The position numbers were made by a program, and so were the translations under genes. From the NCBI GenBank assembly GCA_963666275.2, contig CAXXOA010000001.1, positions 2,208,001 to 2,272,000 on the forward strand: a stretch of DNA of 64,000 nt, in the 5' to 3' direction. Under the pieces are notes generated by a model that was not told the DNA's origin, did no database searches, and worked only from the letters and a program-made list of their open reading frames with translations. The DNA is from Oceanispirochaeta sp. GTDB lineage: Bacteria; Spirochaetota; Spirochaetia; DSM-2461. Positions 1,784 through 42,100 of this stretch are shown here, piece by piece (within the stretch, counting starts at the first letter, position 1; each line of letters opens with the position of its first letter).

Positions 1784-2212
1784 CTATTTCCATTCTCCGT
1801 CTTCATAGACGATAGAAATGGTTTCCGTCATAGATCCCACTTCCTGACTGTTCAAGTCGGACATGGTCCATCCGCAGGGAACACATTCAAACAGGTTCCG
1901 TCTTGTAATTTCGCTCTGTCCGTCCCGGTCTACCAGAACAATAGAGACCGCTTTCCTTTCGGGAATCCCTCTTTCCACTGTTTTCCACCAATCCCGCAAT
2001 ACAGTATCTTTGGGATCGCAGTTTCGTGAAAAAGAGACCACATCGTACTTCACTTTTCCCGGGATTTTCCTGGCATTTCTATCGACCCCACCGATATCAT
2101 CAGTGATTTCGGCCGTAGCGCCCAGACCTGTTACAGAGGTAAAGTTACCATAATCCACACCGTCAATTTCGACTTTGAAATTGGTCTTCATCGTTGGTAC
2201 ATAATCAGCCAT
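1784..2212 (-). CDS. CIS tail tube protein (T4 gp19 / Afp1-Afp5 family)
   Basis: 142 aa with FKVEIDG..GNFTSVTGL, RKIPGKVKY..V..SR, LRDWWK, ERKAVSIVL.D, NL.EC.P..W and ETISIVYE, the typical tube pattern; adjacent to the sheath gene. Confidence 0.93.
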   Translation of the reverse strand: MADYVPTMKTNFKVEIDGVDYGNFTSVTGLGATAEITDDIGGVDRNARKIPGKVKYDVVSFSRNCDPKDTVLRDWWKTVERGIPERKAVSIVLVDRDGQSEITRRNLFECVPCGWTMSDLNSQEVGSMTETISIVYEDGEWK

Positions 2213-2235
2213 CTTTCTTCTCCTTCTTAAAAGAT

Positions 2236-3459
2236 TTATTCAGACAATGTCTTTTGCGAAACGCGGAATACGACAAATTCGGCCGGTTTGGCCGGCGCAA
2301 TTCCCACTTCACAAACAACATAACCTGCATCAATGGATTCCGGAGGATTCAGTTCATCATCACAGCGGACAAAAAATGCCTCCTCGGGAGAATCGCCAAA
2401 CAGAGCCCCTTCTTTCCAGAGGCGCAAACAGAATGCCGTGAGATTCCTGACAATCTGCTTCCACAGGGACCGGGTATTCGGTTCGAACACCACCCAGTTG
2501 GTGCCGTCCTGTATAGCTTTTTCAACCATACAGAAAAGACGACGGATGTTAATGTATTTCCATTCCGGGTCGGAACTGAAAGTCCTGGCTCCCCAGACAC
2601 GGATGCCTCTACCGTCAAACTCTCTGATGCAGTTGATCCCTTTGGGATTCAGCAGTTCCTGCTCTGCATCGGTCAGATTGTATTTCAGCCCGGTAGCTCC
2701 CCGGAAAATTTCGTTGGCAGGAGCTTTGAAAACTCCTCTGGTGCTGTCTACCCGGCCGTACACGCCGGCAATACCACCGCAGGGTGGGGCATAGACATCC
2801 GTATCATTATCGGGATCGTACATTTTTACCCAGGGAAAGTAATAGGCTCCCATGGTAGAATCCCGTGGCATGGGCATGGTATCTATCCCCTTTTCCAGAG
2901 TTTCCGGTGCATCCAGGACGGCAACCCGAAATCTGTTTTTTTCACAGTGGGACAGGATGGCGTCCTGAGCCGCCGGTTCGGTAACGCCGGGAGCACAGAC
3001 TATGGAAATATCACCGATTTCATCAAAAGCACAGAGGCCGGACCTTTTTCCCGGTCCTTCATCTTTTCCTATGATCAATTTGGTAATCCCATCGGGATTC
3101 TTTACTATAAATGGTTCTTCCACTGTTTCAGGTTTTGCCTTGGCGTCCTTGGTCTGATCCTTCTCACTCTCTTTACCAGCCGCTTTCTGTGCGGGTATTT
3201 CCATCAGATTGTTGATATAGCACTTGGTGCCGCCATTCTGAAAGAACTGATATACCGAATGAGAGAGCCATCCGTTTTTGTGCATACCGCCGAAGGTTTT
3301 AGTATATTGCGTCCAGTTGGTAACGAGGGTGGCTTCATTAACAGGCCCTTTTTCTGCAACTCCAAGAAAACCCACCACATTGGTAGCACCGGCTTCCAGA
3401 GGTTTCGATCCGCTGGAAACTTCTTCAACATATACACCGGGTGTCAAATACTGTGGCAT
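2236..3459 (-). CDS. CIS contractile tail sheath protein (Afp2/3/4 family)
   Basis: YLTPGVYVEEV N-terminus, AYYFPWVK, RGVFKAPAN, LNPKGINCIR, GIRVWGART, WKYINIRR, WVVFEPN and GIAPAKPAEFV motifs. Confidence 0.97.
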   Translation of the reverse strand: MPQYLTPGVYVEEVSSGSKPLEAGATNVVGFLGVAEKGPVNEATLVTNWTQYTKTFGGMHKNGWLSHSVYQFFQNGGTKCYINNLMEIPAQKAAGKESEKDQTKDAKAKPETVEEPFIVKNPDGITKLIIGKDEGPGKRSGLCAFDEIGDISIVCAPGVTEPAAQDAILSHCEKNRFRVAVLDAPETLEKGIDTMPMPRDSTMGAYYFPWVKMYDPDNDTDVYAPPCGGIAGVYGRVDSTRGVFKAPANEIFRGATGLKYNLTDAEQELLNPKGINCIREFDGRGIRVWGARTFSSDPEWKYINIRRLFCMVEKAIQDGTNWVVFEPNTRSLWKQIVRNLTAFCLRLWKEGALFGDSPEEAFFVRCDDELNPPESIDAGYVVCEVGIAPAKPAEFVVFRVSQKTLSE

Positions 3460-3486
3460 AATCCGATTTCTCCTTCCTCAATTTCT

Positions 3487-4038
3487 TTATTTTTTTACAG
3501 CAGAAAACTGCCGTTGTATGACTCTCACCACCCGCTCTTCCTGAGACGAGTTTATTCCCAGCTGTATACACAGATCCCAGCGGTAGGGTTGAAAAGGCTC
3601 CAATTCCCCGGGAAGAGGATAGGAGGCATCAGAATCAAGAAGGTTCATCATGGCTTTTCCCGATTCATTGCCGTACCAGTTGTAGTCTCCCAGAGTAAAA
3701 AAGGGATTATCCTCCACACTCCGATGGATACGGGCGGAAACATCCAGTGCCCTGATGGCTGATTTAAAAGCCGGAACCAGGGCAACCCTCAGGTCCACCA
3801 TCCGGGGAACGGGAACCTGAACTTCTACAGAACTGTCCGGGGATTTCCCGCCGGGTTTTACGATTCTCAGAGTTTCATTTCTATTTCTGCCGTGTCCCTG
3901 TTTGATATCCAGAAGGACAATGACAATTTCCTCCCGGTATTTGCCTTCCCATAGAGAGACGGGGATTCGGGGAAACCATGAGACAAGAGCCTCCCGGATC
4001 TGATTCAGTGAATAACTGAGAACTGCAGCCTGATCCAT
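3487..4038 (-). CDS. Putative Afp16/Pvc16-like tail terminator (cap) protein
   Basis: Size (183 aa) and position immediately upstream of the sheath match Afp16; sequence resemblance is weak. Confidence 0.5.
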   Translation of the reverse strand: MDQAAVLSYSLNQIREALVSWFPRIPVSLWEGKYREEIVIVLLDIKQGHGRNRNETLRIVKPGGKSPDSSVEVQVPVPRMVDLRVALVPAFKSAIRALDVSARIHRSVEDNPFFTLGDYNWYGNESGKAMMNLLDSDASYPLPGELEPFQPYRWDLCIQLGINSSQEERVVRVIQRQFSAVKK

Positions 4039-7000
4039 CAGTATTCGGACCTCCTGTCTTCAATGACAAGTCCTTCAAGATAGAGGAGCTCATCGGGCCG
4101 GATAGAGATTTTATCCTGTTCCAGACCTGTTGATTCGTCAAAAAGCCTGATGTCCTCGACATGATGGATGGAGGAAATACGATCCAGAGTTCTCTGGATA
4201 AACTCTTTCTGAAGGGAAGCGCCGAACTCCCAGCCGTTTCCATCGTTTCCGCCTACAAGCGGATGCAGAACCTGTGCAATCGCGCTGTTTATCTGATCTT
4301 TTGCCGAACGGGCTTCTATGACCTCTTTTCGGAAAACCAGCTTCAGACGAATTTTGACGGACCGATACAAAGGGCCTGAAACCTGCAGTTTTGTCCCCAC
4401 CAGTTTCCTGACAGACAAATACTCTTTTACCCTGCGCAGCAGTTCCGAAGAAGGATAGAGCTTCTCTTTCAGATCGATAGATTCTCTTCCCGGCAAAATG
4501 ATCACGACCACCTCTCCCCGGCTGTTGACTTTGGGCAGACAGATGGAACGGCCCACCGACGAAGAGGCTTCATAGGAGAGCCAGGCAAAGTCCTCGGATG
4601 TGACAGCCCGGTTCCGGCTCCGGAATATTCCGGAAGCCCTTTTTTTAAGGTTTTCCAGTGATTCCAGGTCTGCTCCGCCCATGGCGGGCAGAGGGTTTTC
4701 CACACCCGCAAGGAAAGGAAGGCTCTCCCGGAGGACTTTAACCTGGCCTGCTCCGATATTTCCCCTGACTCCGCCACCGGCAGAGCACTGCCGTATAACG
4801 ATATTATTCTTTCCCCTGGGGGGAATAACGCCTTTTTTTCCATCTCCGAAGAGGATTTTGTTCTTTTGATAGTCCAGGACATAATGCCGGGAAACCGCCG
4901 TGGATTCATGAAAGTGCGGAACCTGATGGTAAGTTACCCAGACTTCCTCTTTTCCTGATCCGGTCTGTTCTTTTCGAACAGCTCCGGGACCTTCTTCCTG
5001 TTCTATGAGGCTCCGTTCGTTTTCGGGAGGATAGACATCCTCCCTTACCTCGATCACAATTCCCGGAAGAATTGGATAGCGGACCAGATCATACTCCTGC
5101 AGAGGCGATCCGCTGCCGGATCCCAGCTTTTCATTATAGAATGTCTGCTTGTTGGATCCGTAAACCGAATTCAGATGCACATTTTTTATGACAGGCATGG
5201 ATTCAAAACTGCCGTTTTCGAATACGACCCGCATCCAGCAGAGACTCTGTCCATACTGCTCTTCCTGTTTCCAGTCGACGGGGATCTGAAACTCAATGAA
5301 TCCTGATCTGTGAAATGAGTCGGTAAAATCGTTAACATTCAGCTTTTCCCAGGTATTATCCCGGCGGTACTCCCATCGAAGAGTGATCTGCCTGTTTTTC
5401 CTGTGAACCAGGTCTTCCCTGTAAAAATCCTGCCTGTCTTTTTCATCCAGTTCGAAAAAAAGAGAGGATTCTCCCGCAGGCAGTGGGTGTTCAAATCCGA
5501 AACCCGTGGCCGGTGCGCTTTCATCATTCACCGTGATTAATGTCACAGGATCTGTGGGTTCCTGCTTTTCTGCGGCTTCAAAATTTTTTCGTATTTCACG
5601 GGTGTGATCACTGTAGGCGAAATCCGAATATACCTTCAGATTCTCTACTGACCGGAACCCTGAATCATAGCTCAAACGCAAGCGGGAAACCACAGGAGGA
5701 ACAATCTTTTCAGAAAAATACCAGTTCCATTTGCCATCAGGACTCTGGGAGTATCCGCCCCCTTTGCCCAGATCCTCTACAGAAATTCTTACCCGGATCC
5801 AGGTGGACAGGACTCCGTTGACCTCTTTTTCCCGGATATCATCGGGACAGAGAAAAGAGATCACTCCGGACTCGCAAAATGCCTTTGTTCCATCCCGAAA
5901 AGAATAACTGCCGCTGGCATACGCCTCTTCTCCGGGGGTTGATACTCCCAGGATCATCCAGTCCTTTCCGTTCCAGTATTCATAACGCATGGAGAGAGAG
6001 TCTCCCGGAAAAGACGGGCTGACAGCTTCATTCAGAAGGACATTGATCTGAATTTTCGCTCCCTTCTTAGAAAAGACCTCATGGGATGAAAGATAGAAGA
6101 TATCATTCACAACAGGAGCTTCCTGAAAAGGCTTGAAATCCTTGTTCAGATCTAATGGGATAAAAGTTACAGAGTTGAAAAGACAGCTGTCCGGTGCCAG
6201 TCCGTCTCCGGAAAAGATAAGCTTTGTTACCATACCATGGCAGTCAAAACAGCTTTTTTCCCGCGGCATCTCGTCAAGACAGGCGCGGATATAAAACCCT
6301 TCCTGCCCGTCTATCTCTCTGGATGCAATGTTCAAGGGCCCGCTGAAATAGACTGTATTCTCTTTTCGTCTCTCCCCTTTATGAAAATAGGCGGGCTCAA
6401 CGGGCTGCCAGCGTTCGCCGTCCCAGAGAGACCAGCTGAAAAAGCGGATCAATTCACTGGCTGCTGAAGCAACCTCTCCTGCCTGTTTCATCTGTAGACA
6501 GACCAGATTGGATTCCTGGAGGAACTGAAAATCTGCCGACTGTATATACAGGTACCGGCTCACTTCATCCGAAGCCCGGAAGAGGGGGAACCCTTCCCCC
6601 TGGTGGTGAAGAGGTTCTGTAAAATCACTGATTCTGGATTGAAAAGAACTTATACAGGAGACAATCCGGTTTTCCCGGATCCCTATCCTTTTGTCTGTTT
6701 CAAACGATATGGCCTGATCGCCGTCATTCCGTCCAGTAGAGACACGAAAGCCTTTTTTGATATCCAGAAGCCCCTCGTATCCGGCTGTGGGCTTGAAGGT
6801 TAGAAGAACCCTTGAAGCCTGGGGAGAGGATAGAGAGAGCCCCATAAGATCAAGAAGAGCCAGATAGGTCTTTTCGGGAACTTTGTTTAAACGGAACAGA
6901 ACCATTTCTGTCATCCATGAGAAGAGTTCGACCAGGGTGACGCCGGGATCCGAAGGATTGTGGTTCGTCCATTCAGGGGTATAATGGGGAATCAAAGAGA

Positions 7001-7058
7001 GAGCTTCTTCGCGGATCTCTTTATATGTTTTATCATCCAAATTGGGACTGGGTATCAA
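4038..7058 (-). CDS. CIS baseplate assembly protein (Afp11 / gp6 / baseplate J-like)
   Basis: PNLDDKTY, PEWTNHNPSDPGVTLVELFSW, LNKVPEK.YLALLDLMG, ILFGDGKKG.IPP, GGADLESLE and RAVTSEDF motifs. Confidence 0.93.
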   Translation of the reverse strand: MIPSPNLDDKTYKEIREEALSLIPHYTPEWTNHNPSDPGVTLVELFSWMTEMVLFRLNKVPEKTYLALLDLMGLSLSSPQASRVLLTFKPTAGYEGLLDIKKGFRVSTGRNDGDQAISFETDKRIGIRENRIVSCISSFQSRISDFTEPLHHQGEGFPLFRASDEVSRYLYIQSADFQFLQESNLVCLQMKQAGEVASAASELIRFFSWSLWDGERWQPVEPAYFHKGERRKENTVYFSGPLNIASREIDGQEGFYIRACLDEMPREKSCFDCHGMVTKLIFSGDGLAPDSCLFNSVTFIPLDLNKDFKPFQEAPVVNDIFYLSSHEVFSKKGAKIQINVLLNEAVSPSFPGDSLSMRYEYWNGKDWMILGVSTPGEEAYASGSYSFRDGTKAFCESGVISFLCPDDIREKEVNGVLSTWIRVRISVEDLGKGGGYSQSPDGKWNWYFSEKIVPPVVSRLRLSYDSGFRSVENLKVYSDFAYSDHTREIRKNFEAAEKQEPTDPVTLITVNDESAPATGFGFEHPLPAGESSLFFELDEKDRQDFYREDLVHRKNRQITLRWEYRRDNTWEKLNVNDFTDSFHRSGFIEFQIPVDWKQEEQYGQSLCWMRVVFENGSFESMPVIKNVHLNSVYGSNKQTFYNEKLGSGSGSPLQEYDLVRYPILPGIVIEVREDVYPPENERSLIEQEEGPGAVRKEQTGSGKEEVWVTYHQVPHFHESTAVSRHYVLDYQKNKILFGDGKKGVIPPRGKNNIVIRQCSAGGGVRGNIGAGQVKVLRESLPFLAGVENPLPAMGGADLESLENLKKRASGIFRSRNRAVTSEDFAWLSYEASSSVGRSICLPKVNSRGEVVVIILPGRESIDLKEKLYPSSELLRRVKEYLSVRKLVGTKLQVSGPLYRSVKIRLKLVFRKEVIEARSAKDQINSAIAQVLHPLVGGNDGNGWEFGASLQKEFIQRTLDRISSIHHVEDIRLFDESTGLEQDKISIRPDELLYLEGLVIEDRRSEY

Positions 7059-7452
7059 TTTCGCCTCGCTCCAGATAAAAAGGGTAAACCATGTTGAAAT
7101 AGGTATTGACTGACCGCAGGAGATAGCTAATTCCTACATGAAACTTTGTCTCATCTTCAGGATCCTCCCTGACTTCCACATTCTGCAGAATGATTCTATG
7201 CTCCCACTTTGTGAGGGCTTCTTCCACATAGTATTGAGCCAGAGACCTTGTCCGGGAATTGTTGGGTGCAAAAACCAGACTATTCAGATCACAGCCGAAG
7301 TCCGGCCTCATGACCCGTTCTCCTCTGGTGGTGCCCAGAATTATTTTTATAGACTCTTCCACCGATTCTTTACCAGCTATGCTTTTGATGCATCCCTGCG
7401 AGTCGATACCGAAATCTATTGAAAACCCTTTTCCCAGAAAAGAAGAATCCAT
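7033..7452 (-). CDS. gp25/GPW-like baseplate wedge protein (Afp9)
   Basis: FLGKGF, ESIKIILGT.RGERVMRPDFGC.L, L.KWE.RI and NMVYPFYL motifs; ATG at 7452 preceded by GAAGGAG. Confidence 0.93.
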   Translation of the reverse strand: MDSSFLGKGFSIDFGIDSQGCIKSIAGKESVEESIKIILGTTRGERVMRPDFGCDLNSLVFAPNNSRTRSLAQYYVEEALTKWEHRIILQNVEVREDPEDETKFHVGISYLLRSVNTYFNMVYPFYLERGEIDTQSQFG

Positions 7453-7765
7453 GAAAGGCAACTCCTTCAATCAATAAAATACGTTGTGTTATTTTTAAGA
7501 ATGAATTGAGAATTGTAAAGTAGCCTTTCAGTGCCATTTTCTGTAATACATTTCCCATATATCTACTACTTAAAGTATTTTTTTGTTTATTTATAACACT
7601 CAAATACTACTTTCAGGGCTTTTCAGTTATATGTAAATTGGGTTTTATTTTTAAATTCATAAATTATCATTGATATATTTATAAAATCCTGTATTAATGT
7701 TGTATGTTATTCAGATAACAAGAGATTATTTCAGTACGAGGATTATCAGAAAACAGGTAAAAAAA
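7453..7765. promoter_or_regulatory. AT-rich divergent promoter region of the CIS locus
   Basis: Non-coding gap between the two divergent arms, with repeated TACTACTT at 7564 and 7605. Confidence 0.6.
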
Positions 7766-8389
7766 ATGAAAATAGCAATTTTCAGCAAACATCCCTTAAT
7801 TTCAGAAATGATGACTCATTACTTCAGTTCTCTGGGAAGGGATATGAATATCTATTCGTATTATCCTGAAGAAATGGGATCGTTGAGAAAGGTTTTTGAC
7901 TACATTATCCTGAACAACCTGTGCCAGTTTGGGGATATAACGGCTTATGTGCAAAAAGCGCAGGAGTTTGTCAAAAACCGGAAAAACCTGATTCTTATCA
8001 ATGGTGACCATATGAACTGCCATATTAACGGATTTACCGTGTTTAGCGGAGCCAACAGCCTGCAGGATTTGACTCTTGCTATTACAAGCTCTTCCCCCTC
8101 TCCCAAAGATATGTCCCGGCCCTTTTCCATGCAGGAAATGATCTCCCATATGCCCCGGTCTTCACAGTTGCAGAATGATTTTTCTGATCTAACCCGGCAT
8201 CAGAAGGATATTTTAGGGTTTCTTTTAACCAATATGGATTATACCGTGATTGCCGATCATTTTGGAATTTCGATTAATACTCTGAAAAAACATAATACCA
8301 ACATCTTTAAAAAAATGAATGTTAGATCCCGGAATGAATTACAAAAACTCCTTATCCGGTCAGCCGTGTTATCCGAGTCCCAGACATAA
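7766..8389 (+). CDS. LuxR-family HTH regulator with a degenerate receiver-like N-terminus
   Basis: C-terminal LT.HQKDIL..L......IA..FGIS.NTLKKH.TNIFKKMNV.SR.EL is a LuxR HTH; start placed at MKIAIFS. Confidence 0.85.
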   Translation: MKIAIFSKHPLISEMMTHYFSSLGRDMNIYSYYPEEMGSLRKVFDYIILNNLCQFGDITAYVQKAQEFVKNRKNLILINGDHMNCHINGFTVFSGANSLQDLTLAITSSSPSPKDMSRPFSMQEMISHMPRSSQLQNDFSDLTRHQKDILGFLLTNMDYTVIADHFGISINTLKKHNTNIFKKMNVRSRNELQKLLIRSAVLSESQT

Positions 8390-8408: not shown

Positions 8409-9041
8409 ATGAATGTTTTACAGACAGGTTTTGTTTCAGACAATCAGGATCCGGATCAGCTGGGGAGAGTCAAACTCTCCCTTTATCTGTCTGAAGTCGC
8501 CACAGAAACAGACTGGCTTCCTGTGATTCAGGGAATCGCCGGAGATGACAAGGGGATCTTCTGTCTTCCCGATACGGGGGATTTTGTGTTGGCTGTTTTT
8601 TCCGACAGCAGCCTGAAAAAGGGCTATGTTCTGGGCAGTACCTGGACCCAGGACGCAGCCCTCCCCCTCTCTGAGGAAAACGGTGACGCCGATCTGAACG
8701 GAGACGGCAACAACGCCTTGAGGATGATCAGAAGCAAATCGGGTCAGCGCATTATTCTGGACGATACCGAAGGGGCTGAGAAGATCCAGGTTCTCAACAC
8801 CGACGGCACCAGCCGGCTGGAACTCAATGCCGAAGAGGAGATGATCAGTCTGCTGAGCGAGCAGGATGTGACCCTGAATGCCAAAACAACAGTGAGCATT
8901 AGGACCGAAGAGATGACAGTAGAAACAGACGGAGACCTTACCATTCAGTGCGATAATCTGGGAGTGGAACCCGGTGGGGATGCCAATCTGAAAGGCAGCG
9001 GCGGAATAGTTCTGGAAGGCAAAGGCGTAGGGATAAACTGA
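8409..9041 (+). CDS. gp5/gpV-like spike protein (OB fold plus beta-helix, no gp27 hub)
   Basis: G.V.DNQDPDQLGRVK, TDW.PV, G.FCLPD.GD.VL, GYVLGS.W and SKSGQRIILDD motifs, then beta repeats; AGGAGG RBS before ATG 8409. Confidence 0.88.
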   Translation: MNVLQTGFVSDNQDPDQLGRVKLSLYLSEVATETDWLPVIQGIAGDDKGIFCLPDTGDFVLAVFSDSSLKKGYVLGSTWTQDAALPLSEENGDADLNGDGNNALRMIRSKSGQRIILDDTEGAEKIQVLNTDGTSRLELNAEEEMISLLSEQDVTLNAKTTVSIRTEEMTVETDGDLTIQCDNLGVEPGGDANLKGSGGIVLEGKGVGIN

Positions 9042-10927
9042 TGGCCTGGGGATTCAGCACTATACTGGAAGAGTTTAAACAGGATTACTATGACCCTACC
9101 GATCCCATTGACCGGATGGTATACGAGGAAAACCAGAGGAAACAGAACTTCTCCTTCGGGATCGTTACGGATAATCAGGACCCGGACAAACGGGGGCGTA
9201 TCAAAGTTCACTTACCCATGATTGCCAAAGACTACATCAGCAGATGGATCTGGATATTCCGCCCCTACGGGGGAGATAACAAGGGGATCTGGGCCCTGCC
9301 TGATATCGGTGATCAGGTGATGATCGCTTTTATCAGAGGCGATATCCATCACCCCGTCTGCCTCGGTGGAATGTATACTCCGAGGCACAGGCCTCCGATC
9401 AAAGACAATCCGGACAACAATATCAAAGCCATCAAAACCAAAGGCTGTTACCTTCTTATGGACGAGACTCCCGGAGAAGAGCGGATGGAAGCCTCCCTCA
9501 AGGACGGACAGATCCGCGTGGTGATCGATACCAAGGGCGTGCATCTGACCAATGAATTGGGAGGTATCGATATCCAGTGCCGGAAACTGACCATTGCCGG
9601 AGGGGCAGTCCAGTTTCAGACCGAAAAAGACCTGAGCCTCAAGACAGGTGGAAATCTGACCATGGAATCCCAGAGCACCCTGGCCCTCAGCGCTGGCGGA
9701 GAGATTACCATAAAGGGTAGCTCTGTCGACCTGAAAGGCAGCACGGGAGTCACCGCCGAGGGCAAACAGATAGCCAAGGAGAGTGATCCTGTAGCGGGTA
9801 TGGACCTGCACGACATAGAGGTTCCCTCCAGCAAAGGAACCCAAAAAGTCCCGGCTATCCCCCACCCTTATATGGGAAAACTGGTAGATAAACTGAGCGG
9901 CGATGTTTCTGTAGGCGGCAAAGCCGCAGCTACACAGGGCTCGAAAAGTGAATTCGGTGCTCCCGGTCATTTCCCGATGCTCCCGGGAATCAAGTTTTCC
10001 AGCAATCCCGACAATATGGGAGAGGTCACAGGCGGCTGCATCGACAGCGTAAAAATCAATGGCAACCCGGCGGCAGTTTTAGGCAGCACGGTCAGCACCT
10101 GTGACGATGCGGGCCAGAGCGACCACTGTACGGTAGTCGCACCCGGCACGGTAGTCACCTTCCCCATCCAGTACCCCGGGCAGGACCCGGAGCAGTACAA
10201 ACGGGACGGCGGATTGCCGATCAATGTGTCAAACCCTGCAGTGTATACTCCGGAAGATATTGCCTACAGGGATCAGCCCAAGAGCCTGACCGCCCTGCAG
10301 TGGAGTGCCAGCGAGGTCAACAAAGGCGAAGAGGTTACCCTCAGCTGTTCCACCAGCGGAGTGAAAGACGGTGCGGGGGTGATGTTCAGTATCTATCCCG
10401 AAGGGGCGAACACGGAGGTTGATCCGCCTTTGATGGATATCAGGGGCAAAAACAAAGGCAGCCGGGCTGAGGTGAAGTGGATTGCCAAAGACATTCGCAA
10501 ACCCGACGGGGATCAGCCTATGAAGTGGTTCTTTACTGCCTGGACGCTGTATTGTCCGAAAGAAGAGAGCGGTGAGATTCGGGTGCTGAATCCCAGAGTA
10601 ATAGATATGGAGTGGGAGAAAGACGCTGTATTCTGGGGAAATGAAATTAAACTTATTATCAATTCTTTTGAAGCAAGTAATTCGTCTAAAAATTACTCTT
10701 TAGAATTATGGGAGCAGGATATCTCAAATCCCGATGATTTCATTAACAACCAGGAAATTTCGATAACTGATGATTCCTTTGAAATAACCTACACATTAGA
10801 CTTTGATCTATCCCTTGTATCTGATTTTAACAGTGAAAAAGAGTACCAGTTGTACTGCAGAATTCTTGATAAAGAAGGAAATGAACTAAAGACCTCCCCT
10901 ATTTGTGAAATGCATGGAGATTACTAA
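9041..10927 (+). CDS. gp5-like spike fused to a PAAR domain and a C-terminal beta-sandwich extension
   Basis: OB fold (GIVTDNQDPDKRGRIKV, LPDIGDQV), beta repeats, then a PAAR-like region (PHPYMGKL, VSVGGKAAA, VKINGNPAAVLGS.V.TC) and a ~250-aa extension. TGATG coupling to the upstream spike gene. Confidence 0.85.
   Translation: MAWGFSTILEEFKQDYYDPTDPIDRMVYEENQRKQNFSFGIVTDNQDPDKRGRIKVHLPMIAKDYISRWIWIFRPYGGDNKGIWALPDIGDQVMIAFIRGDIHHPVCLGGMYTPRHRPPIKDNPDNNIKAIKTKGCYLLMDETPGEERMEASLKDGQIRVVIDTKGVHLTNELGGIDIQCRKLTIAGGAVQFQTEKDLSLKTGGNLTMESQSTLALSAGGEITIKGSSVDLKGSTGVTAEGKQIAKESDPVAGMDLHDIEVPSSKGTQKVPAIPHPYMGKLVDKLSGDVSVGGKAAATQGSKSEFGAPGHFPMLPGIKFSSNPDNMGEVTGGCIDSVKINGNPAAVLGSTVSTCDDAGQSDHCTVVAPGTVVTFPIQYPGQDPEQYKRDGGLPINVSNPAVYTPEDIAYRDQPKSLTALQWSASEVNKGEEVTLSCSTSGVKDGAGVMFSIYPEGANTEVDPPLMDIRGKNKGSRAEVKWIAKDIRKPDGDQPMKWFFTAWTLYCPKEESGEIRVLNPRVIDMEWEKDAVFWGNEIKLIINSFEASNSSKNYSLELWEQDISNPDDFINNQEISITDDSFEITYTLDFDLSLVSDFNSEKEYQLYCRILDKEGNELKTSPICEMHGDY
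10055..10596 (+). repeat. Direct repeat copy 1 (PAAR end plus first extension domain)
   Basis: High-identity match to 14706-15247, with the same 4651-bp offset at both ends. Confidence 0.95.
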
Positions 10928-10931
10928 GGAT

Positions 10932-12035
10932 ATGCCAATGAAACAGAAGATCCTCATACTCTTATGGCTTATTGCCAATATCAATATTTTTTCAAATGAT
11001 CTCTTCACTCCCAAGATAAATCATGGGGAACTGATAGAACTGAATGTAAACACCATCGCTCAAACTCTGGGTATAAGTGAAGAGGACGTTAAGGCCCATC
11101 CCCCGGAGAAAGAGGGATTCGGTCCCATAGAAAGTTATGGGGAATATCATGAATTCTTTCAGATCCTATCTATGATACCCCGCGGTTTTTTCATACAGGA
11201 TATACCGGAAGAAGGGCTTACTTTCTATCGGGTAATGTATGAGGTGGAACAGCAACATGCCATTACCGATGAAGTACTCTGTTATGAGCGAATATTCTAC
11301 CAGGATAGAGACACGGGGGAAATTATTCTGAGTTATGAAGACTATATGAACTATAAAGCCAGAGGTTGGCAGTTAAGTACACCGGAAATTGAGAAGGGTG
11401 TAATGCTTATTGTCAGAAACGGCAGCTATGACGGTGTTATGGTTTACCGGTTGTGGTATGAGGATGTTTACGAAATGGAAGATCCTCCCCGGTATGAGAC
11501 AAAAAATAGGCATGAAGCTTTTGTATACTTTTTTGGTGATGGAGAAAAAACAGCTGTTCCCGATAACTTTGAAGACCCGGATATCCATATTACCGCATCC
11601 AATCCTCTTATAGACAGGGATGATAGATTCAAATACACCATACAAAACGCTTTCGATCAGAATCCGGCCACCAGTTATGTGGAGGATACGGAGGATGACT
11701 TAATGGAGGTAAGTATTTCTTTTTCTGACGAGTATTACAATGCTTTATTGGATAAGAATATTTCAATTGTATCTAGACGAATTATAAATGGATATGCTCA
11801 GGATGGAAATTTATATCAACTAAACAATCGTATTAAAAAAGAAAAAAGTTATGAGTTAGTAGATAATTTCCTAGATTATCAAATAATGCCAAGAAAATAT
11901 ACTGAACTTGGTGTTGGTTATAGAATAATCGTCAAAGACATATATAAAGGATCAAAATACAACGATACATGTTTAGCAGAATATGATTGGAAAATGAATA
12001 TTGGAGATTGGATTTTTGGAGGTTATGATGAGTAA
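10932..12035 (+). CDS. Exported protein with a C-terminal discoidin/F5-8-like domain; candidate immunity protein
   Basis: Signal peptide MKQKILILLWLIANINIFS; NAFDQNPATSYVE...INGY...NNRIK...KGSKYNDTCLAE pattern; 8-nt overlap with the effector gene. The immunity role is inferred. Confidence 0.7.
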   Translation: MPMKQKILILLWLIANINIFSNDLFTPKINHGELIELNVNTIAQTLGISEEDVKAHPPEKEGFGPIESYGEYHEFFQILSMIPRGFFIQDIPEEGLTFYRVMYEVEQQHAITDEVLCYERIFYQDRDTGEIILSYEDYMNYKARGWQLSTPEIEKGVMLIVRNGSYDGVMVYRLWYEDVYEMEDPPRYETKNRHEAFVYFFGDGEKTAVPDNFEDPDIHITASNPLIDRDDRFKYTIQNAFDQNPATSYVEDTEDDLMEVSISFSDEYYNALLDKNISIVSRRIINGYAQDGNLYQLNNRIKKEKSYELVDNFLDYQIMPRKYTELGVGYRIIVKDIYKGSKYNDTCLAEYDWKMNIGDWIFGGYDE

Positions 12036-14460
12036 AGCTCATATCCGGAATCTACCTATCCCTTATTTTTCTCAGAGAGAAAATATGTATGAATGGAAAG
12101 AGAGAGAACCAAAGGAAATTTGGAGTGATGAACAGGAGAAAGACATCCCAAATCCAAATGCTGGTAATGTAATTTACTGGACAGCTGAGGATGAAGTAGC
12201 TAATGCAAACCATAAAGAAGGAACACCTAAAAAAACAGAGACCATGTCCCTTTGCAGTTGTAACATAACCTGTCTGGCAATGCTGCTTCAATACTGCGGA
12301 ATAACCGATGATACTCCTGACGATATAATGGAAAAAATCTTCTCCGCAGCTACGGATGAAGATAATGATGAATTAAGGGCTATCAAGGAAGAGAATTATT
12401 CACATGGGCCATCGAATGTATTAAGCATAAGATCCCACAAACGAATTGTAAAAGCCTTATATAATATCGATACGGTTGATTTAGGTTACTCCAGCAACCT
12501 GGAATACCTTAAGGAAACAGTGGCCAGCGGTTTTCCTGTCATGATTAGTTGTGGAATTCTTAGACGTCACACAGAATCATTCTACCAAAGCATTATTGAT
12601 GGAGCAAGTAACGCTCATCTATACTCATACTCCCATGATGGAATAAGAAATGTTCATGATGATTTACTCTCAATTTACAGGAACAATTATGGGACCAGCT
12701 ATGAGGAAGATCTTTCTGAAGCTCTGGAAGAATTAGAAGCTGCATCTACAGATGAAGAAATAAACACTGCCAATCAGAAAATTGAAACGATTGAGAATCA
12801 GCAGGAACAAGTAAAAGAAGAAGTTCTTCAGTACTGTCTTGATGATTATAGAACACACGGTCATTATATCGTTGTAAGAGGATTTACCGAGGATTCTGTC
12901 ATAATCAACGATCCATGGGGTGATCCAACAGATTTCAATGGCAATTTTCCCAGCGATGGGAAGGGAAATTACTACAACAGTTCCCCCTTTGGAGATAATA
13001 TTACCATTTCCCTTGAGGACTTTGAAAAACAGTATAATGCAGACGGTACTCTTTGGTCGTCCTTAGTAATTAGACATAATCTGTGGAACTTCGTATTTGC
13101 TTCAAATACGGATAGAAGAGTCGTCCCTCCGCAAACTCTTCTTAATGGTTTTTATGAGCAAGAAATCTATGAGTACGGGGGTTACCCCATGAAAAGGAGT
13201 AATCTCTGGCATAATGGGATTCACCTGAAAGCCGACAACATAAGAGGAGTCTATCCTATCGGTCCTGGTCAAATCATCGCCGCAAGGATTCTGGATGAAG
13301 ACTTAAGCAACCCGGACAATAATCCTGCTCCAATTAATGGTAATAGATGTTTTGTTCTGATAAAACATAATTTAAATATCAACAGTGAAATCAAATCTTT
13401 CTTTTCACTATATATGCATTTAAAACCTGAAGAAAATCTGGAATCGAAAATATCAAACTATCCGGTACAACCCCTGCAAGCGGATTGGTTGGAGGAGATA
13501 ATCTTTCGTTCTAAAAAAGTCATGAAAGTAAAAGATAGTAGGACTCCCTCCATCTTCAGTGTTGAAGATGATAGAAATCTTGGCTCATTTACAGCAGGAA
13601 CATTATTCCCCTATGAGAGCTGTGATGATCAAAAAATCTACTTCAATTTTGAAATATCTGGACAAACAAGAGAATGCTACTCCTTTATGACAGATGATTT
13701 CTATATTTATCCAAGTGCCTATAAAAGCAATTCAGAAGAGATTATGGATAAATATCAAAGTGTTCTTGATTCATTAGCCCAGGGCAGAACAACATATTTC
13801 ACAGAACTGCCTGATCCTGTAATAGAAGTGACCGCGTCCACATGTATCGGAAAAACTGGAGTCTTTGGTGGTTATAATGCAGAAAATAGAGGAATGATTC
13901 ACCTTGAAATATTCAGCGACGATATTATTATACCTCAATTTGATGAATATGGGTTTAATCCAGAGCCTATCTATCTTGAGGATTCACCTACTGCAATGTG
14001 TAACAGAGAAGAAATGATAGGTCTTTTTGATAAATTTGGCTTATACAACACCATTGCAGAAGGATCACGATTTATCCATCTACAGGATGGAATCATTTCT
14101 AAAGCGGAAATGCAGGCGTATTATAATCAGAAGCCGGCAATTCTGAGAAATATGATTTGCCAACATAAAAGTGAATGGTATGAAGGAATCAATTGGGAAG
14201 ATGAGTTAGCGAATGCGGTGGGAGTCCCTTTTGGTATTCCTTTAATCCATAATGTATTGGAAGACAAATTAATAGAAAACCTGCAGGAGTATATTAACAG
14301 AATTTATAACCCCTACAAATGGCTGAATGATGGAGATTGTTTGAATGCCATGAATCTGGAATCCTCTGATAATCTAGCAAACGGGTGTGCCACATACTAT
14401 CACCCTATAAAATTCCTTGAATGGCTTGTGGAATATCAGAACCAAGTTATTACAGATTAG
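12028..14460 (+). CDS. Candidate CIS effector: N-terminal C39-like cysteine peptidase plus WHIX-like (degenerate M23-like) region
   Basis: LPIPYFSQ, SCNITCLAM (Cys), GHYIVVRG (His), INDPWG (Asp); then GGYP....LWHNGIH, FFSLYMHL, IHLEIF and YYHPIKFLEWL. No signal peptide; AT-rich. Confidence 0.75.
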   Translation: MSKAHIRNLPIPYFSQRENMYEWKEREPKEIWSDEQEKDIPNPNAGNVIYWTAEDEVANANHKEGTPKKTETMSLCSCNITCLAMLLQYCGITDDTPDDIMEKIFSAATDEDNDELRAIKEENYSHGPSNVLSIRSHKRIVKALYNIDTVDLGYSSNLEYLKETVASGFPVMISCGILRRHTESFYQSIIDGASNAHLYSYSHDGIRNVHDDLLSIYRNNYGTSYEEDLSEALEELEAASTDEEINTANQKIETIENQQEQVKEEVLQYCLDDYRTHGHYIVVRGFTEDSVIINDPWGDPTDFNGNFPSDGKGNYYNSSPFGDNITISLEDFEKQYNADGTLWSSLVIRHNLWNFVFASNTDRRVVPPQTLLNGFYEQEIYEYGGYPMKRSNLWHNGIHLKADNIRGVYPIGPGQIIAARILDEDLSNPDNNPAPINGNRCFVLIKHNLNINSEIKSFFSLYMHLKPEENLESKISNYPVQPLQADWLEEIIFRSKKVMKVKDSRTPSIFSVEDDRNLGSFTAGTLFPYESCDDQKIYFNFEISGQTRECYSFMTDDFYIYPSAYKSNSEEIMDKYQSVLDSLAQGRTTYFTELPDPVIEVTASTCIGKTGVFGGYNAENRGMIHLEIFSDDIIIPQFDEYGFNPEPIYLEDSPTAMCNREEMIGLFDKFGLYNTIAEGSRFIHLQDGIISKAEMQAYYNQKPAILRNMICQHKSEWYEGINWEDELANAVGVPFGIPLIHNVLEDKLIENLQEYINRIYNPYKWLNDGDCLNAMNLESSDNLANGCATYYHPIKFLEWLVEYQNQVITD

Positions 14461-14672: not shown

Positions 14673-15593
14673 ATGATTACTGGCAGCAACATCAAAGCCA
14701 TCAATATCAATGGCAACCCGGCGGCAGTTTTAGGAAGTACTGTCAGCACCTGTGACGATGCGGGCCAGAGCGACCACTGTACGGTAGTCGCACCCGGCAC
14801 GGTAATCACCTTCCCCATCCAGTACCCCGGGCAGGACCAGGAGCAGTACAAACGGGACGGCGGTTTGCCCATCAATGTGTCAAACCCTGCGGTGTATACT
14901 CCGGAAGATATTGCCTACAGGGATCAGCCCAAGAGCCTGACCGCCCTGCAGTGGAGTGCCAGCGAGGTCAACAAGGGAGATGAAGTCACCCTGAGCTGTT
15001 CCACCAGCGGTGTAAGAGAGGGCGCGGGAGTGATGTTCAGTATCTATCCCGAGGGGGCGGATACGGCAACAGATCCCCCTTTGATGGATATCAGGGGAAA
15101 AAACAAAGGCAGCCGGGCTGAGGTGAAGTGGATTGCCAAAGACATTCGCAAACCCGACGGGGATCAGCCTATGAAGTGGTTTTTTACCGCCTGGACGCTG
15201 TATTGTCAGAAAGAAGAGAGCGGAGTTATACAGGTGTTGAATCCCAGGATAACAGATGTGTCATGGAAAAAGAAATCCTGTTTTCTGGGAGAGAAAGCGG
15301 AACTCACTATTAAGAGTTTTGAGATGAGTAATAAATCTCCTACAATCTCTATTGAACTTTGGGAAGAAGATGAGAATAGTCCTGATGATTTTGTACTTAC
15401 ACAGGAAGAAAAAATCGACTCTGACGAAATCTCAGTAACCATACCCTTTGATTTTTCACAGGAAGAACTGGAAAGACTCTCCGATTTTGATATGGACACG
15501 GAAGGTGATCTTGAAATATTTCCTGTTCTGAAATACCAGGATGAGAAACTGGACACGAAACCCGGAATAGTACGAATAAAGACAGGAGCCTGA
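14673..15593 (+). CDS. Orphan, 5'-truncated spike/PAAR C-terminal module with an alternative terminal domain
   Basis: Near-identical to the C-terminal part of 9041-10927 up to VLNPR, then divergent. It lacks the OB fold, the beta-helix and most of PAAR. Confidence 0.85.
   Translation: MITGSNIKAININGNPAAVLGSTVSTCDDAGQSDHCTVVAPGTVITFPIQYPGQDQEQYKRDGGLPINVSNPAVYTPEDIAYRDQPKSLTALQWSASEVNKGDEVTLSCSTSGVREGAGVMFSIYPEGADTATDPPLMDIRGKNKGSRAEVKWIAKDIRKPDGDQPMKWFFTAWTLYCQKEESGVIQVLNPRITDVSWKKKSCFLGEKAELTIKSFEMSNKSPTISIELWEEDENSPDDFVLTQEEKIDSDEISVTIPFDFSQEELERLSDFDMDTEGDLEIFPVLKYQDEKLDTKPGIVRIKTGA
14706..15247 (+). repeat. Direct repeat copy 2
   Basis: Matches 10055-10596. Confidence 0.95.
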
Positions 15594-15596
15594 GTT

Positions 15597-16751
15597 TTGA
15601 AAAAGTATTTTTTATTCTTATTACTTATGATCAGCACATACCTGAGCGCTACCACTTTAAACGAGTTTGTTCCCTACAATATGTATGACACGCCCCGGGA
15701 AGAGATAGAAGATTTCTACAACTTTGCCGTTGAGAATAATATTCCTACCGCGGGAATAACCACTCTGGATCAAATGCATGTTCTTGCCAGGGGAGTGAAA
15801 AAGCTCTTCCGTATATATAAGGAAGAGATAGGCGGACATACCTTCTATCACGCTTTCTATACAACAAGGCGTCACGGCCTTGCTCGAGAAAATGACCCCT
15901 ATTTTAGAGATGATATTACTGAGGACGATATAACTTGTGCAAGAATGATTGATCCCTGGGTGGATAATCTTTATGAATTTATGGATGACAAACCCGAGTT
16001 TGGCAAAATTGAAGATAATCCCTATCCAATGATTTACCAGAGGCTTTACCTGGAGACAGGGAATGGATTGAAATATCTGGATGAGGCGGAATATTTTCTT
16101 TCGTTCAACCGTCCGGGTCCCACAACAATTGGAATAGAAATTGGATCCCTGCAACCCTGGTCTCTGGAGGATGAATTTGGTTATTGGTCAGTTCTTTATA
16201 TTAAAAGTAAACAGTTAGGAATGTATGATTCAGTATCCTATGGACAATCTCATAGGGCCAAACGTGTTTACCTTGATGAGGAAGGTGAGAACATAGGACA
16301 GATAGATATTGAAGCCAGCAATCCTCTGATCGATTCCCAAAGACCTTTCCGCTATCTGATTCTCAACGCCTTCGATCAGAATCCGGCCACCAGTTATGTG
16401 GAGGATACAGAAGATGATTTGATGGACTTTGTAGGATTGTATTCAGATTCTTTACAAGTTTATCTACATAATAAAAAAACTGAATTAATAGGATTAAGAT
16501 TAGTTAATGGTTTTGCAAAAAATCAAAGACTATATTTTGAGAATAACATAATTACAAAAATTGGAAGTAATATCCTTAAAAAAACAATAGATTATCAGTT
16601 CATCAAGTATCCAGCACCTCAAATGTCTATTGGGATAGGATTTGGCGCAACAGAAATTAGTAAAGGAACAAAGTTTAATGACACTTGCTTAGCTGAGATT
16701 GATTGGCAACTAACAGATGGATCTTACCTTATAGGAGGTCGGTTTGAATAA
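15597..16751 (+). CDS. Paralogous exported discoidin-domain protein; candidate orphan immunity protein
   Basis: Signal peptide MKKYFLFLLLMISTYLSA; shares ASNPLID, NAFDQNPATSYVEDTEDDLM and NDTCLAE with 10932-12035; N-terminal half divergent. Confidence 0.75.
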   Translation: MKKYFLFLLLMISTYLSATTLNEFVPYNMYDTPREEIEDFYNFAVENNIPTAGITTLDQMHVLARGVKKLFRIYKEEIGGHTFYHAFYTTRRHGLARENDPYFRDDITEDDITCARMIDPWVDNLYEFMDDKPEFGKIEDNPYPMIYQRLYLETGNGLKYLDEAEYFLSFNRPGPTTIGIEIGSLQPWSLEDEFGYWSVLYIKSKQLGMYDSVSYGQSHRAKRVYLDEEGENIGQIDIEASNPLIDSQRPFRYLILNAFDQNPATSYVEDTEDDLMDFVGLYSDSLQVYLHNKKTELIGLRLVNGFAKNQRLYFENNIITKIGSNILKKTIDYQFIKYPAPQMSIGIGFGATEISKGTKFNDTCLAEIDWQLTDGSYLIGGRFE

Positions 16752-17169
16752 TTCTCGTATAAGAAATCTTCCAATTCCTTATTTTTCTCAACGGGAGAAT
16801 CTTTATTCTTGGAAACAAAGAGAGCCAGCATACAAAGGTATTGATGAAGTAACACAATTGCCAATTTCTAATCCCAATAAAGGTAACATCATCCAATGGA
16901 CATCAGAAGATGAAGCTATAGATCCAACCCATAAAGCAGGTACTCCAAAAAATCAAAGATCCCTGGCATATAGCAGCTGCAATATAACCTGTCTCTGTAT
17001 GGTGCTGAATTACCTGGGGATTTCCCATGAAACCCCGACTCAGATGCTTGAAAAAGCCTTTGATGTGAACGACCCCAAAAACACTGATTTTCTCAATCTT
17101 CTTAATGAAAGCGGATTAATCCTGAAACACAGGATTATCATCGGAAATGATATCTTTCACAAAGGTTGA
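16744..17169 (+). pseudogene. Truncated paralog of the C39-like effector
   Basis: IRNLPIPYFSQREN and SCNITCL are retained, but the His/Asp motifs and the WHIX-like region are absent. The frame runs into the antisense 3' end of udk. Confidence 0.8.
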
Positions 17170-39141: not shown

Positions 39142-42100
39142 ATGAGAAACAGGTTTATCTCTTTACTCCTTGTACTGTCTTTTCTGCCTCTGCCTGTCAG
39201 TCCGGAACAGGGAGCCCCTTCTCTGTCTCTACCGGAGGAATCATCATGGACAGTCTATGACATCCATCGATCCCTTTCGGAAAGTCTCTCCCATTCGGAT
39301 CTGAATCTCCTATTAACAGGAATGGACCAGCTTGAAAGGGAATTCCTCTACAGGACGGAAGGGGGAAACCTCCTTTTTGACAGTAAAAATGATCCCCTTC
39401 TGAGGAGCAGTGATCCCGCTGAGATAGAACAGGACAGAACCCTTTATGAAAACCGGGCCCGTGCCATTCAGGAGACCCTGCTTTCCCAATGGGAGGAAAA
39501 GGCCCAGAAAGCAAGAACTGTTCTTATGACACCCCTGTCTCAGGGGCAGACAGCACTATCGGAGACAGTGGAGAGGGAGCTGGATCTCTTCCGGCAGAGG
39601 ATATGGGAAGAGACAGACAAGATGATCTGCTACAGGCTGGACCGATTCAACTACTTCAGAAAAAAGGATAATTTCTCACTGCGCAGAAAAAGCGAAGACC
39701 AGACTGCACTCATGGCAGCCGCAGAGCTGACAGAAAGGGTGAATGATGAAACCCGGGAGATCCTGCAGATACTGGAAAAACCATTAGACAGGGAAAGCGG
39801 TGCTGCAGTCAGCCAGGCGTCCTTTTCTCCTGATTCCTGGGAAGAGAGCTTTGACAGGGAGTTCCGGAAGGGCCTTGAAAAATGGCAGAAAGCGGAAGAG
39901 GAAATCCTTTCCGGCCGTATAGACTGGGAACTGGAGCTTTCTGAAAAGTACAGAGAAACCGAAGCCGCCTGGGACAGGTCAATGCAGATTTTCTCAGATA
40001 CAAGGAAAGCCTGGATAGAGGAGATGAAGGATCTCTACAGAACGGGCCTGAACGCATGGGATCTGCAGCAGGAAGAGTATCAGGAAAAGTTTGAAACCAT
40101 GGCCAGGCAGATGGAGGAGGACTCTATCCGTCAGGAGGAGATATTCCTTTCCCGCGTAACAGAGTCTCTGGATATCTACAGGGAGAGTCTGCAGTACAGG
40201 GATTCGGCAGAGAAAAATATTCAGTATTACCAGAGTAAAATCCGGGAATTGGAGGATCTGAAAGCCAATAGCCGGAACAGAATAGACAGCATTGAAACCG
40301 GTATGGCCGCTGCCATGTTTGCCATGAGATTGAATGAGGGCAAACTTCAGAATTCTCAGGTGGAACTTCAGGATCTGCAGAACACTCTGGAATTGCTTCA
40401 GAATGAACGGCAGGAGATCGGGGATGATCTTGATGCTGTGAATGGACGGATTGAAGATTCTGAAGATCTTGAAGAAGAGCTTCAGGACCTGCTTGAAAAA
40501 CAGCAGAATCTGAGGGAAAGGCTGATTGAAGTGAATGAGCAGATTGAGGACACAGAAAATGGAATAGTGACTCTGGAATCAGATATACTTAGAGAACAGA
40601 GGATCCTCGACTCCTACTACACTTCTTATGCCCCCCAGCTGAATGCCATAGCCCTGGAAAGGGGGTATATCATCAGCTATGACATAAAACGTTCTGATTT
40701 TCTGAAGGAAAAAGAGACATGGGAATCCCTGAGCAAAGAGTTTTCCGGGCAGATGAAAAGGGCCGAAGAGGACCTGATCTCTCTTCAGGCGGAAGCCGGC
40801 GCTTATGACACATCGGTCCCCTCTTCCTCCCTGGAACAGGAGATTGCCAGAATGGAACTGGTCACGGAATACCTTTTCCATCAGCTTGCCGTATCAGAAG
40901 CTGTGATGGAATACGCCTCACAGGACACATCTCTCCGACCCCGGGATTCTCAGACACAGGAGGATTACGATGAGGCTCTTTCCAGCCTGGAAGAAGGGGA
41001 AAGGGAATACCTCAGCTTCCAGTCCCGTCTGGACTCGCTCAGAGAGGACCTGACAGGGCTGCAGGAACAGATCCTGGCAAAGGAAAAGGCTCTTCAGGAA
41101 ACCCTGGAGGCTCAGACAGAAGCGGGAAAAGCCTATGAAATGTCCCAGGAGATCTACAGGAACAGTGACATATCCCTTCTGCAGGCCGGAATCAGCAGCC
41201 TACAGGATCAGCTGGATGCCTGGTTCCAGGGAAAAGACTCGGCCCCCCCGGAACGTCAGACACTCTATACAGAATATATCCATGCCGGACAGGCCGACTG
41301 GGTCAGGGAAAAAGAGGAAGCTGCCAGGACTCTGCTGCGGGATCTGACAGGAGAGGAAACTCTCATGGAGAGCGATAACATTACCAATACAGAGGATCTG
41401 TCCCTTCTTATCGCCAATCTTGAAAATCTTGATCCCCGAAGAACTGCATCAGCAGAAGAGTGGGAAAACCAGCTGATTTCCTGCGGTTTTGAACAGGGAG
41501 ACTACGAGTATGAAATCCTTCAGAATCAATTCGGCACAACCCCTTTTCATAGACTCTCTCTGGATAAAGCCCTCCGGGATCTTATCAGGGAACAGAAACA
41601 GAAGTACTGGAATAATGCCCTCCTGGAGGAGAGGCTCCGTCAGGAAGATGACCCATCCCGGAACCTTCAGGAGGATCTGGATAGGGCTCTAAACAGCCTT
41701 TTACTAGAAAAAACAGAGCTTATGATTCTGATCGGAGGCTATCTGAAAGACGGCGGAGAAGTCCTTGCTCCCTACAGGGAGTATATATCTTTTCTGAAAG
41801 ATCAGGGATTCCGGCTGGAACAGGACTCTCTGGATGGCCTGATTCAATTGAGAGAGCTGCTGAACAGACAGCTGGCAGGAGAAATCGGAAAAGAAGAGCT
41901 TTTAACCCTGGTATCAGAACAGGGCGGCCCGGCACTCTGGCTGAGTTATCTAAACGGAGACAACAGCGATATGCCCCCGGAACTTTCCTTCCTGGATATC
42001 TTTCCGGAGGCATCCTATGATGAGGTTCTCCGTGCCCGGGGCGCTCTCTTTGCAGGTGAGTGTATACAGCAGTTCAACACGGGGGCAGAGGTCCTTTTCA

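Follow-up and report, generated by a model that had tools for sequence, protein, structure and literature searches.

How can a spike of three chains carry one tip domain when that domain is encoded as part of a spike chain? The question is raised by two genes in a 64,000-nucleotide stretch of an Oceanispirochaeta sp. genome (assembly GCA_963666275.2, contig CAXXOA010000001.1, positions 2,208,001 to 2,272,000), which is called here the window and whose coordinates are used below. In described contractile injection systems (CIS), PAAR or gp5.4 is a monomer seated on a flat trimeric tip (PMC12407873). In the window, the first gene encodes a gp5-type spike chain with a blunt end and the second a gp5 paralogue fused to PAAR. 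It is likely that the two products assemble at a ratio of 2:1 into one heterotrimeric central spike, the tip of which is predicted to be capped by the one fused PAAR. This composition was put forward in a preliminary description of this stretch and is now supported by a permuted base strand in the fused PAAR, by a 2:1 structure model with the chains in register and by the retention of both genes at genome level where no free PAAR was found. With somewhat less assurance, we lean towards a stricter form of this reading, an obligate, hard-wired 2:1 spike in which the permuted PAAR would force two blunt partners and dispersed fusion cassettes would be swappable single-copy warheads on a constant scaffold. 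The gene pair itself is a real, conserved feature of extracellular contractile injection system (eCIS)-like machines of spirochaetes.

Two paralogous spike chains

The pair and the parts of the fusion are as follows (aa, amino acids).

8409..9041, plus strand: ORF1, blunt gp5-type spike chain of 210 aa, with OB fold, acidic loop and beta-helix
9041..10927, plus strand: ORF2, gp5-PAAR-extension fusion of 628 aa, its start overlapping the stop of the blunt gene
9149..9736, plus strand: the fusion's gp5 region (aa 37-232), made up of OB fold and beta-helix, with its end in register with the blunt chain
9737..9760, plus strand: linker of the fusion, aa 233-240, in which strand 237-239 is the predicted first base strand of PAAR
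9761..10144, plus strand: PAAR domain of the fusion, aa about 241-368, three repeats and a putative His3-Cys metal site
10280..10924, plus strand: two tandem Ig-like beta-sandwiches of the fusion, a likely cargo adaptor whose last sandwich differs between copies

Both chains have the order of gp5/VgrG spikes, an OB fold (Phage_base_V, 61 bits in ORF1 and 83 bits in ORF2, Pfam cut-off 23.8) followed by a beta-helix, and with 28% identity over 216 columns (E 2e-23) they are paralogues; the blunt and the fusion subfamilies have distinct invariant residues. From the conserved glycine to the end of the helix there are 204 residues in the blunt chain and 192-193 in the fusion, so that the similar length of OB fold and beta repeats noticed earlier is borne out. 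The same holds for the other features first read from this locus: the blunt chain reaches its flat end at GVGIN, the last beta-helix strand, where the gene stops, and the second chain runs on into PAAR; the TGA of ORF1 and the ATG of ORF2 share letters (TGATG); and a gp27 hub is present in neither ORF, being encoded by a separate gene of 349 aa. The junction between the ORFs is covered without any difference by a contig from a public run that is possibly the source sample. The coupling was dropped as evidence for stoichiometry and regarded as incidental, as it was found in two of ten related pairs, the other gaps measuring 10 to 1090 bp.

The PAAR domain of ORF2 scores 25.3 bits by Pfam, slightly below the cut-off of 27, and that of a second fusion copy on contig C2 of the same genome reaches 34.8. 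Three repeats and the His3-Cys ligands of PAAR proteins can be assigned to it, the putative metal ligands His257, His275, His310 and Cys354 being kept in 69, 63, 68 and 66 of 69 aligned fusions, respectively. Free PAARs are separate chains with the PAAR near the start and a base strand at the C-terminus, which is not what is found here, where the PAAR sits behind gp5; on reading of the blunt and fusion sequences, an HxH motif near the C-terminus, as in the P2 gpV-type apex, is also absent. The part of ORF2 behind PAAR, about 250 residues and absent from the preliminary description, was modelled as the two tandem Ig-like beta-sandwiches with a predicted local distance difference test (pLDDT) score of 90.

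The acidic loop of the blunt chain (window 8670-8715, P0001 aa 89-102) is a signature of the blunt family, with E90, N91, D95, N97 and N102 invariant in 121 sequences, and residues 96-110 contact a neighbouring chain in the 2:1 model described below. Its D-x-N-x-D-G spacing resembles that of a calcium-binding loop.

A permuted PAAR domain behind the spike

In free PAARs the first PAAR motif stands at the start of the chain and a V-x-I-G strand at its end, whereas the fusions have a similar strand directly before the first PAAR motif, in the linker. When the same pattern and window were applied to both groups, a C-terminal V-x-I/V-G strand after the metal-site Cys was found in 32 of 35 PAAR-first proteins and in none of 67 fusions (70 were examined, 3 of them cut before the Cys), counts that are not independent, as the rows are often close kin. 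The three PAAR-first misses comprise one protein that ends in V-x-I-A, one with the strand in another register and one that is a fusion fragment. Between the last helix turn and the first PAAR motif there are 17-20 residues in all 69 fusions measured, and 19 in 57 of them, a short and near-fixed spacing that leaves no long flexible tether. Four fusions stop right after the last PAAR hairpin, and in these the linker strand would be the only candidate for a third base strand. The fused PAAR is judged from these patterns to be circularly permuted, the linker strand replacing the missing base strand of the C-terminus.

In genome G031 the fusion is minimal, 365 aa long and ending directly after PAAR, and a GNAT acetyltransferase-like gene (by eye; L013:832-1386) lies between blunt and fusion. 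Charge complementarity of the helices (16 acidic and 6 basic residues in the blunt chain, 11 and 10 in the fusion) was considered and dropped, since the blunt chain of G031 is basic.

A model of the proposed 2:1 spike

A complex of two blunt chains (P0001) and residues 1-375 of the fusion (P0002) was predicted with ESMFold2 from alignments of 120 and 69 rows, as the preliminary description had suggested for this assembly among others. It scored 0.89, the best of three controls reaching 0.01; the mark used for this score is reached by 116 of 157 solved complexes and by 2 of 215 mismatched pairs, figures that apply to this job no more than approximately. The model runs agree in at least 95% of contacts, with partner pLDDT of at least 84. 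The three modelled beta-helices end in register and both blunt C-termini lie under the single PAAR: the last strand of blunt copy 2 (207-209) pairs with the fusion linker strand 237-239, residues 207-209 of blunt copy 1 lie between fusion residues 222-223 and PAAR strand 337-339, and fusion residues 286-289 are also in contact. The modelled geometry is thus the one that the 2:1 idea predicts, which is no proof of it.

On this basis the spike would be built as follows. Two blunt chains and one fusion chain would wind one triple beta-helix on the gp27 hub, at the end of which the fusion chain would turn, via a link of 2-5 residues, into strand 237-239 and continue into the sole PAAR cap. The PAAR base would consist of three strands (237-239, near 286-291 and 337-339), and the blunt chains, each with its last strand, would pair with 237-239 and 337-339. 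With a second fusion chain a clash would be expected, because the layer is shared and the link is short, so that its own strand and cone would come to lie in the place of the first PAAR; two of the chains would have to be blunt, since further fusion chains would occupy the PAAR site. The Ig-like or SpaA-like ends may load cargo encoded next door, here a C39-like peptidase beside a protein with an NADase-type domain. The blunt chain would then be the constant part, usually one gene per genome, and one to five fusion cassettes together with orphan modules would supply interchangeable tips, with one tip type per particle.

Retention of both genes across genomes

In the family of the source organism (38 genomes, the same 38 being retrieved for its order), six genomes have a gp5 spike, and in all six a blunt gene is followed by a fusion, adjacent or one gene apart. 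In a phylum sample of 401 genomes, PF04717 matched in 15, of mixed kinds. Of 32 genomes picked for a fusion or a blunt locus, most have both; the usual pattern is a single blunt gene with one to five fusions, which frequently lie far from one another. In each of the five genomes assembled in 1-3 contigs (G000, G010, G297, G453 and G455), a single blunt gene is accompanied by one or more intact fusions. Among the genomes examined, no complete, well-assembled machine was seen that lacked one of the two genes. One fusion copy of G297 is split over two reading frames inside its gp5 part (L044:1333-3222).

The genome of the window has three gp5 OB folds, those of the pair and that of the second fusion on C2, which is 90% identical to the window fusion over 518 aa and has no blunt neighbour. 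The homology at C2 starts 20 bp before the ATG and retains the final codons of the blunt gene; for this reason the C2 copy probably arose by copying of a cassette. A weak match places a SpaA/prealbumin-like domain at its end, and its downstream genes differ from those in the window. The sequence around its cassette is AT-rich and comes behind a possible tRNA end, and the cassette is followed by two near-identical transposase-like cassettes (IS66-like by eye; L009:15547-19733). A free PAAR was not detected in this genome by PF05488, whose matches are the two fusions and an orphan half-module; DUF4280 did not match there either, which is uninformative given that its control matched nowhere. Additionally, no free full-length PAAR of this subfamily was found in two overlapping sets of 15 and 21 genomes that were searched, all full matches lying in long frames.

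Origin of the pair

The same query also retrieves loci outside the spirochaetes, in which a single gp5 or VgrG has the same flat end, in many cases together with a free PAAR, and the free PAARs of Methanoperedens and Chloroflexota (L081-L120) belong to the same subfamily, being 37-40% identical to the PAAR region of the window. In a quick midpoint-rooted tree of 80 gp5 domains, from which duplicates and rows covering less than about 170 profile positions were omitted, all 27 fusion rows, L066 included, form one group (97 by the SH-like approximate likelihood ratio test, SH-aLRT), and fusion and blunt chains stand apart from 41 other gp5s (96). A single ancient duplication, after which one copy fused to the gene behind it, would suit this tree, which does not give the order of events. 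The pair may have arisen when a gp5 gene with a downstream free PAAR gene, as in Methanoperedens and Chloroflexota, was duplicated; the second gp5 copy would have fused to PAAR, and the redundant C-terminal base strand would have been lost afterwards.

Loci that have a tandem pair of blunt gp5 paralogues, and in which no PAAR was detected, were also observed (L080:567-1891, L107:5911-7265, L109:5947-7270 and L108:3050-4487). They come from GC-rich metagenome-assembled genomes titled Proteobacteria/Rickettsiales, and three of them lie beside a sheath-like gene or at the end of a contig. These loci are a possible independent two-chain spike.

Points against the 2:1 spike and alternative readings

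Several observations weigh against a 2:1 spike. Of 96 fusion loci, 20 have a blunt neighbour in the fetched flank, as do 12 of the 46 for which 3 kb or more of upstream sequence was available, so that the expectation of a blunt paralogue beside every gp5-PAAR fusion failed, and loci with the fusion alone, which had been named beforehand as refuting a heterotrimer, do exist as worded (the other 76 and C2). We judge this to be the wrong test, and locus adjacency was dropped as a test of pairing, since near-closed genomes keep a blunt gene; given those 76 loci, the link between blunt and fusion holds per genome and not per locus, and the fusion-alone loci are mostly satellite cassettes. At genome level too there are exceptions. 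Of 256 genomes of a second family (an unbiased set, at least 90% complete), 21 matched and 8 have both genes, while three have the blunt gene only (G357, G510, G520) and four the fusion only (G560, G598, G631, G639), the remainder being two with a partial gp5 only (G111, G653) and four weak hits outside the classification. The blunt gene of G510 ends 12 bp from a contig end, that of G520 is on a 2.7-kb contig, and in G639 a baseplate gene is cut on the side where the blunt gene lies in G357; with the queries used, CIS_tube-LysM gave no match in G357, G560 and G631, the hub none in G560 and baseplate J none in G598 and G631. Two genomes of the picked set are similar cases: G464, which is fragmented, has just the blunt gene, and G450, which gave no sheath or baseplate match, just the fusion. 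We read such single-type draft genomes, which are many, as truncated or decayed, a reading of our own. Furthermore, monophyly of the blunt chains is unsupported in the quick tree (48), and paralogous spikes may stay apart, as in Serratia, where PAAR is essential and where the conclusion was that VgrG1 and VgrG2 do not combine in a heterotrimer (PMC4924876). The model score, finally, comes from the 2:1 assembly and gives it no rank over 0:3, 1:2 or 3:0, and because this trimeric family has solved VgrG-PAAR spikes, the pass may reflect likeness to them.

If each of the two proteins formed a homotrimer of its own, a blunt spike with no tip and a fusion spike with one PAAR capping and two set aside would serve alternative particle types. 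The usual lack of linkage between satellite fusion cassettes and the blunt gene would suit this, as would the assembly of T4 without gp5.4 (PMC12407873), the Serratia result and G357, which has the blunt gene only and carries the extension on its hub. However, G357 is also one of the genomes without a CIS_tube-LysM match, a linker of 2-5 residues with its strand in the PAAR base would leave little room for two displaced cones, and the blunt gene is kept in all near-closed genomes though no free PAAR was found for it, which makes such homotrimers unlikely in our estimate. We would give slightly less credit again to co-assembly at a mixed stoichiometry (3:0, 2:1, 1:2) set by expression levels, with 2:1 as one of several working forms. 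Helix length and register are common to both chains, genomes with several fusions and one blunt gene could favour fusion-rich trimers, and the need for VgrG heterotrimers in the T6SS (type VI secretion system) was traced to effector loading and not to a fixed composition (PMC8668125). On the other hand, the distinct invariant residues and the low identity of the two chains fit fixed roles, and a 1:2 trimer would meet the same clash as a 0:3 one.

It is very improbable that the fusion is a polyprotein cut before PAAR, which would yield an ordinary trimer plus a free PAAR and leave the blunt gene as a spare spike. T4 gp5 is indeed processed by cleavage, but a cut in the linker would remove or strand the base strand, for which the fused PAAR, having lost its C-terminal one, has no replacement, and the linker is short and structured in both models. 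The 2:1 spike with one fused PAAR is the reading that we retain.

The surrounding injection machine

The pair lies beside a divergent structural operon and is followed by candidate cargo genes:

7697..8389, plus strand: LuxR-type regulator directly upstream of the pair (profile match)
1784..7470, minus strand: divergent structural operon, consisting of the next four entries
7033-7470, minus strand: gp25
4038-7058, minus strand: baseplate J
2236-3459, minus strand: sheath
1784-2212, minus strand: tube
L010:9966-11015, minus strand, about 7-8 kb before the window start: stand-alone gp27 hub of 349 aa (Phage_GPD)
10905..12035, plus strand: NADase-type glycan-binding domain protein with a signal-peptide-like start (by eye), candidate immunity protein or partner
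12001..14460, plus strand: Peptidase_C39-like protein, candidate cargo by its position
14673..15593, plus strand: orphan module, the last third of PAAR and an extension with a different end
15597..17169, plus strand: another protein with an NADase-type domain, plus a short C39-like fragment, both following the orphan module

Beyond the window start the operon continues with a second sheath, CIS_tube-LysM, the gp27 hub, an AAA ATPase and eCIS_core genes. Compared with the eCIS core gene list of PMC6899500, the genome has the tube (Afp1/5), sheath (Afp2/3/4), LysM protein (Afp7), gp25 (Afp9), baseplate J (Afp11) and AAA ATPase (Afp15), and for Afp8 (hub plus spike) a separate hub gene and two gp5 genes. 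For the Afp16/Pvc16 cap PF14065 gave no match, its control having matched nowhere either, and TssL/DotU of the classical T6SS membrane complex was not found in this 97% complete genome, the DotU control matching in E. coli. By its gene content the cluster is eCIS-like, and the named relatives are Spirochaetota. A phage origin was considered and dropped, as 50,697 phage records gave one weak partial match and none covering 80%.

The orphan module carries a 587-bp repeat of 10052-10637 at 90.8%, and this repeat could allow the end of the fusion to be swapped. Several hub genes are extended by the Ig-like/SpaA-type module of the fusions (L130:13970-15706 in G357, contigs C1 and C2 of G297, and G631:C69:10229-11263), the hub and fusion extensions matching each other at E 7e-9 and also by Pfam; in G297 the full-length hub matches number seven, and their frames are 531-622 aa long. 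The extended hub seems to be a second cargo-carrying part. In several clusters an NrdG-like radical SAM gene lies between hub and AAA ATPase (L010:9415-9969, minus strand; L067:3747-4319; L064:3806-4402). Elsewhere in the window (39142-48444), an ORF of 3100 aa with a signal-peptide-like start, a long coiled-coil-like body and an M23-peptidase-like end (by eye) is followed by a small lipoprotein-like gene, and the two resemble a polymorphic toxin pair.

Comparison with known systems

A gp5-PAAR fusion with a blunt partner was not found in the titles and abstracts searched, which covered little of the subscription literature, and a literature search for VgrG-PAAR fusions was without result. The passages searched in PMC10715212 and PMC13250141 hold nothing that bears on such a pair; the main text of the PAAR survey PMC8651086 is without "fusion", "Spiroch" or "Phage_base_V", and its tables could list the architecture. 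On spirochaete injection systems almost no literature turned up in the searches made, which covered few subscription papers; phage-like protein translocation structures (PLTS) are listed in Treponema and Spirochaeta, and cases with hub and baseV as separate genes are listed too (PMC4122934).

The closest solved sequences and folds for both chains are eCIS/PLTS spikes (Afp8 with Afp10, Pvc8 with Pvc10, and those of S. coelicolor, 9GTR, Algoriphagus, 7AEF, and Anabaena, 7B5H), with which the cluster shares tube, sheath, LysM, hub, gp25, baseplate J and AAA ATPase genes. However, 9GTR, 7AEF and 7B5H each contain three chains of one spike sequence, whereas here there are two gp5 paralogues, PAAR is fused to one of them and permuted, and no free PAAR was found. 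T4 gp5-gp5.4 and T6SS VgrG-PAAR likewise combine a flat triple beta-helix with one cone and a His3-Cys metal site (PMC12407873), but their tip is a separate monomer on a homotrimer and not covalent with one chain. In the P2 gpV type, spike and tip are also encoded in one gene; there the fused apex is formed by three identical chains around an HxH iron site (PMC12407873), while in the present pair an entire, pseudo-threefold PAAR domain serves as the tip and the blunt chain lacks an HxH at its end. Methanoperedens and Chloroflexota have the PAAR subfamily and a gp5 ending at the flat motif, as here, but with one gp5 or VgrG and a free PAAR that keeps its C-terminal base strand, likely the ancestral state.

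The 3:1 mismatch between spike and tip is solved in the CIS of the papers cited either by a free monomeric PAAR or by an apex of three identical chains, and a covalent tip on one of three chains would, if true, be a third solution, yielding a naturally asymmetric triple beta-helix of fixed ratio. It would also explain the pattern of one blunt gene and many fusions in gut and sediment spirochaetes. The nearest parallel is in the T6SS of Vibrio cholerae and Aeromonas dhakensis, where plain and extended VgrG paralogues were proposed to share one trimer, as inferred from genetics and effector loading, and where a free PAAR caps them (PMC8668125, PMC8651079). The T6SS VgrG case having been argued mostly from genetics, the pair described here offers a test, with just two proteins, of partner choice among paralogous spike chains, both whether it occurs and how, and unlike in the VgrG heterotrimers, the geometry of the tip itself would fix the ratio.

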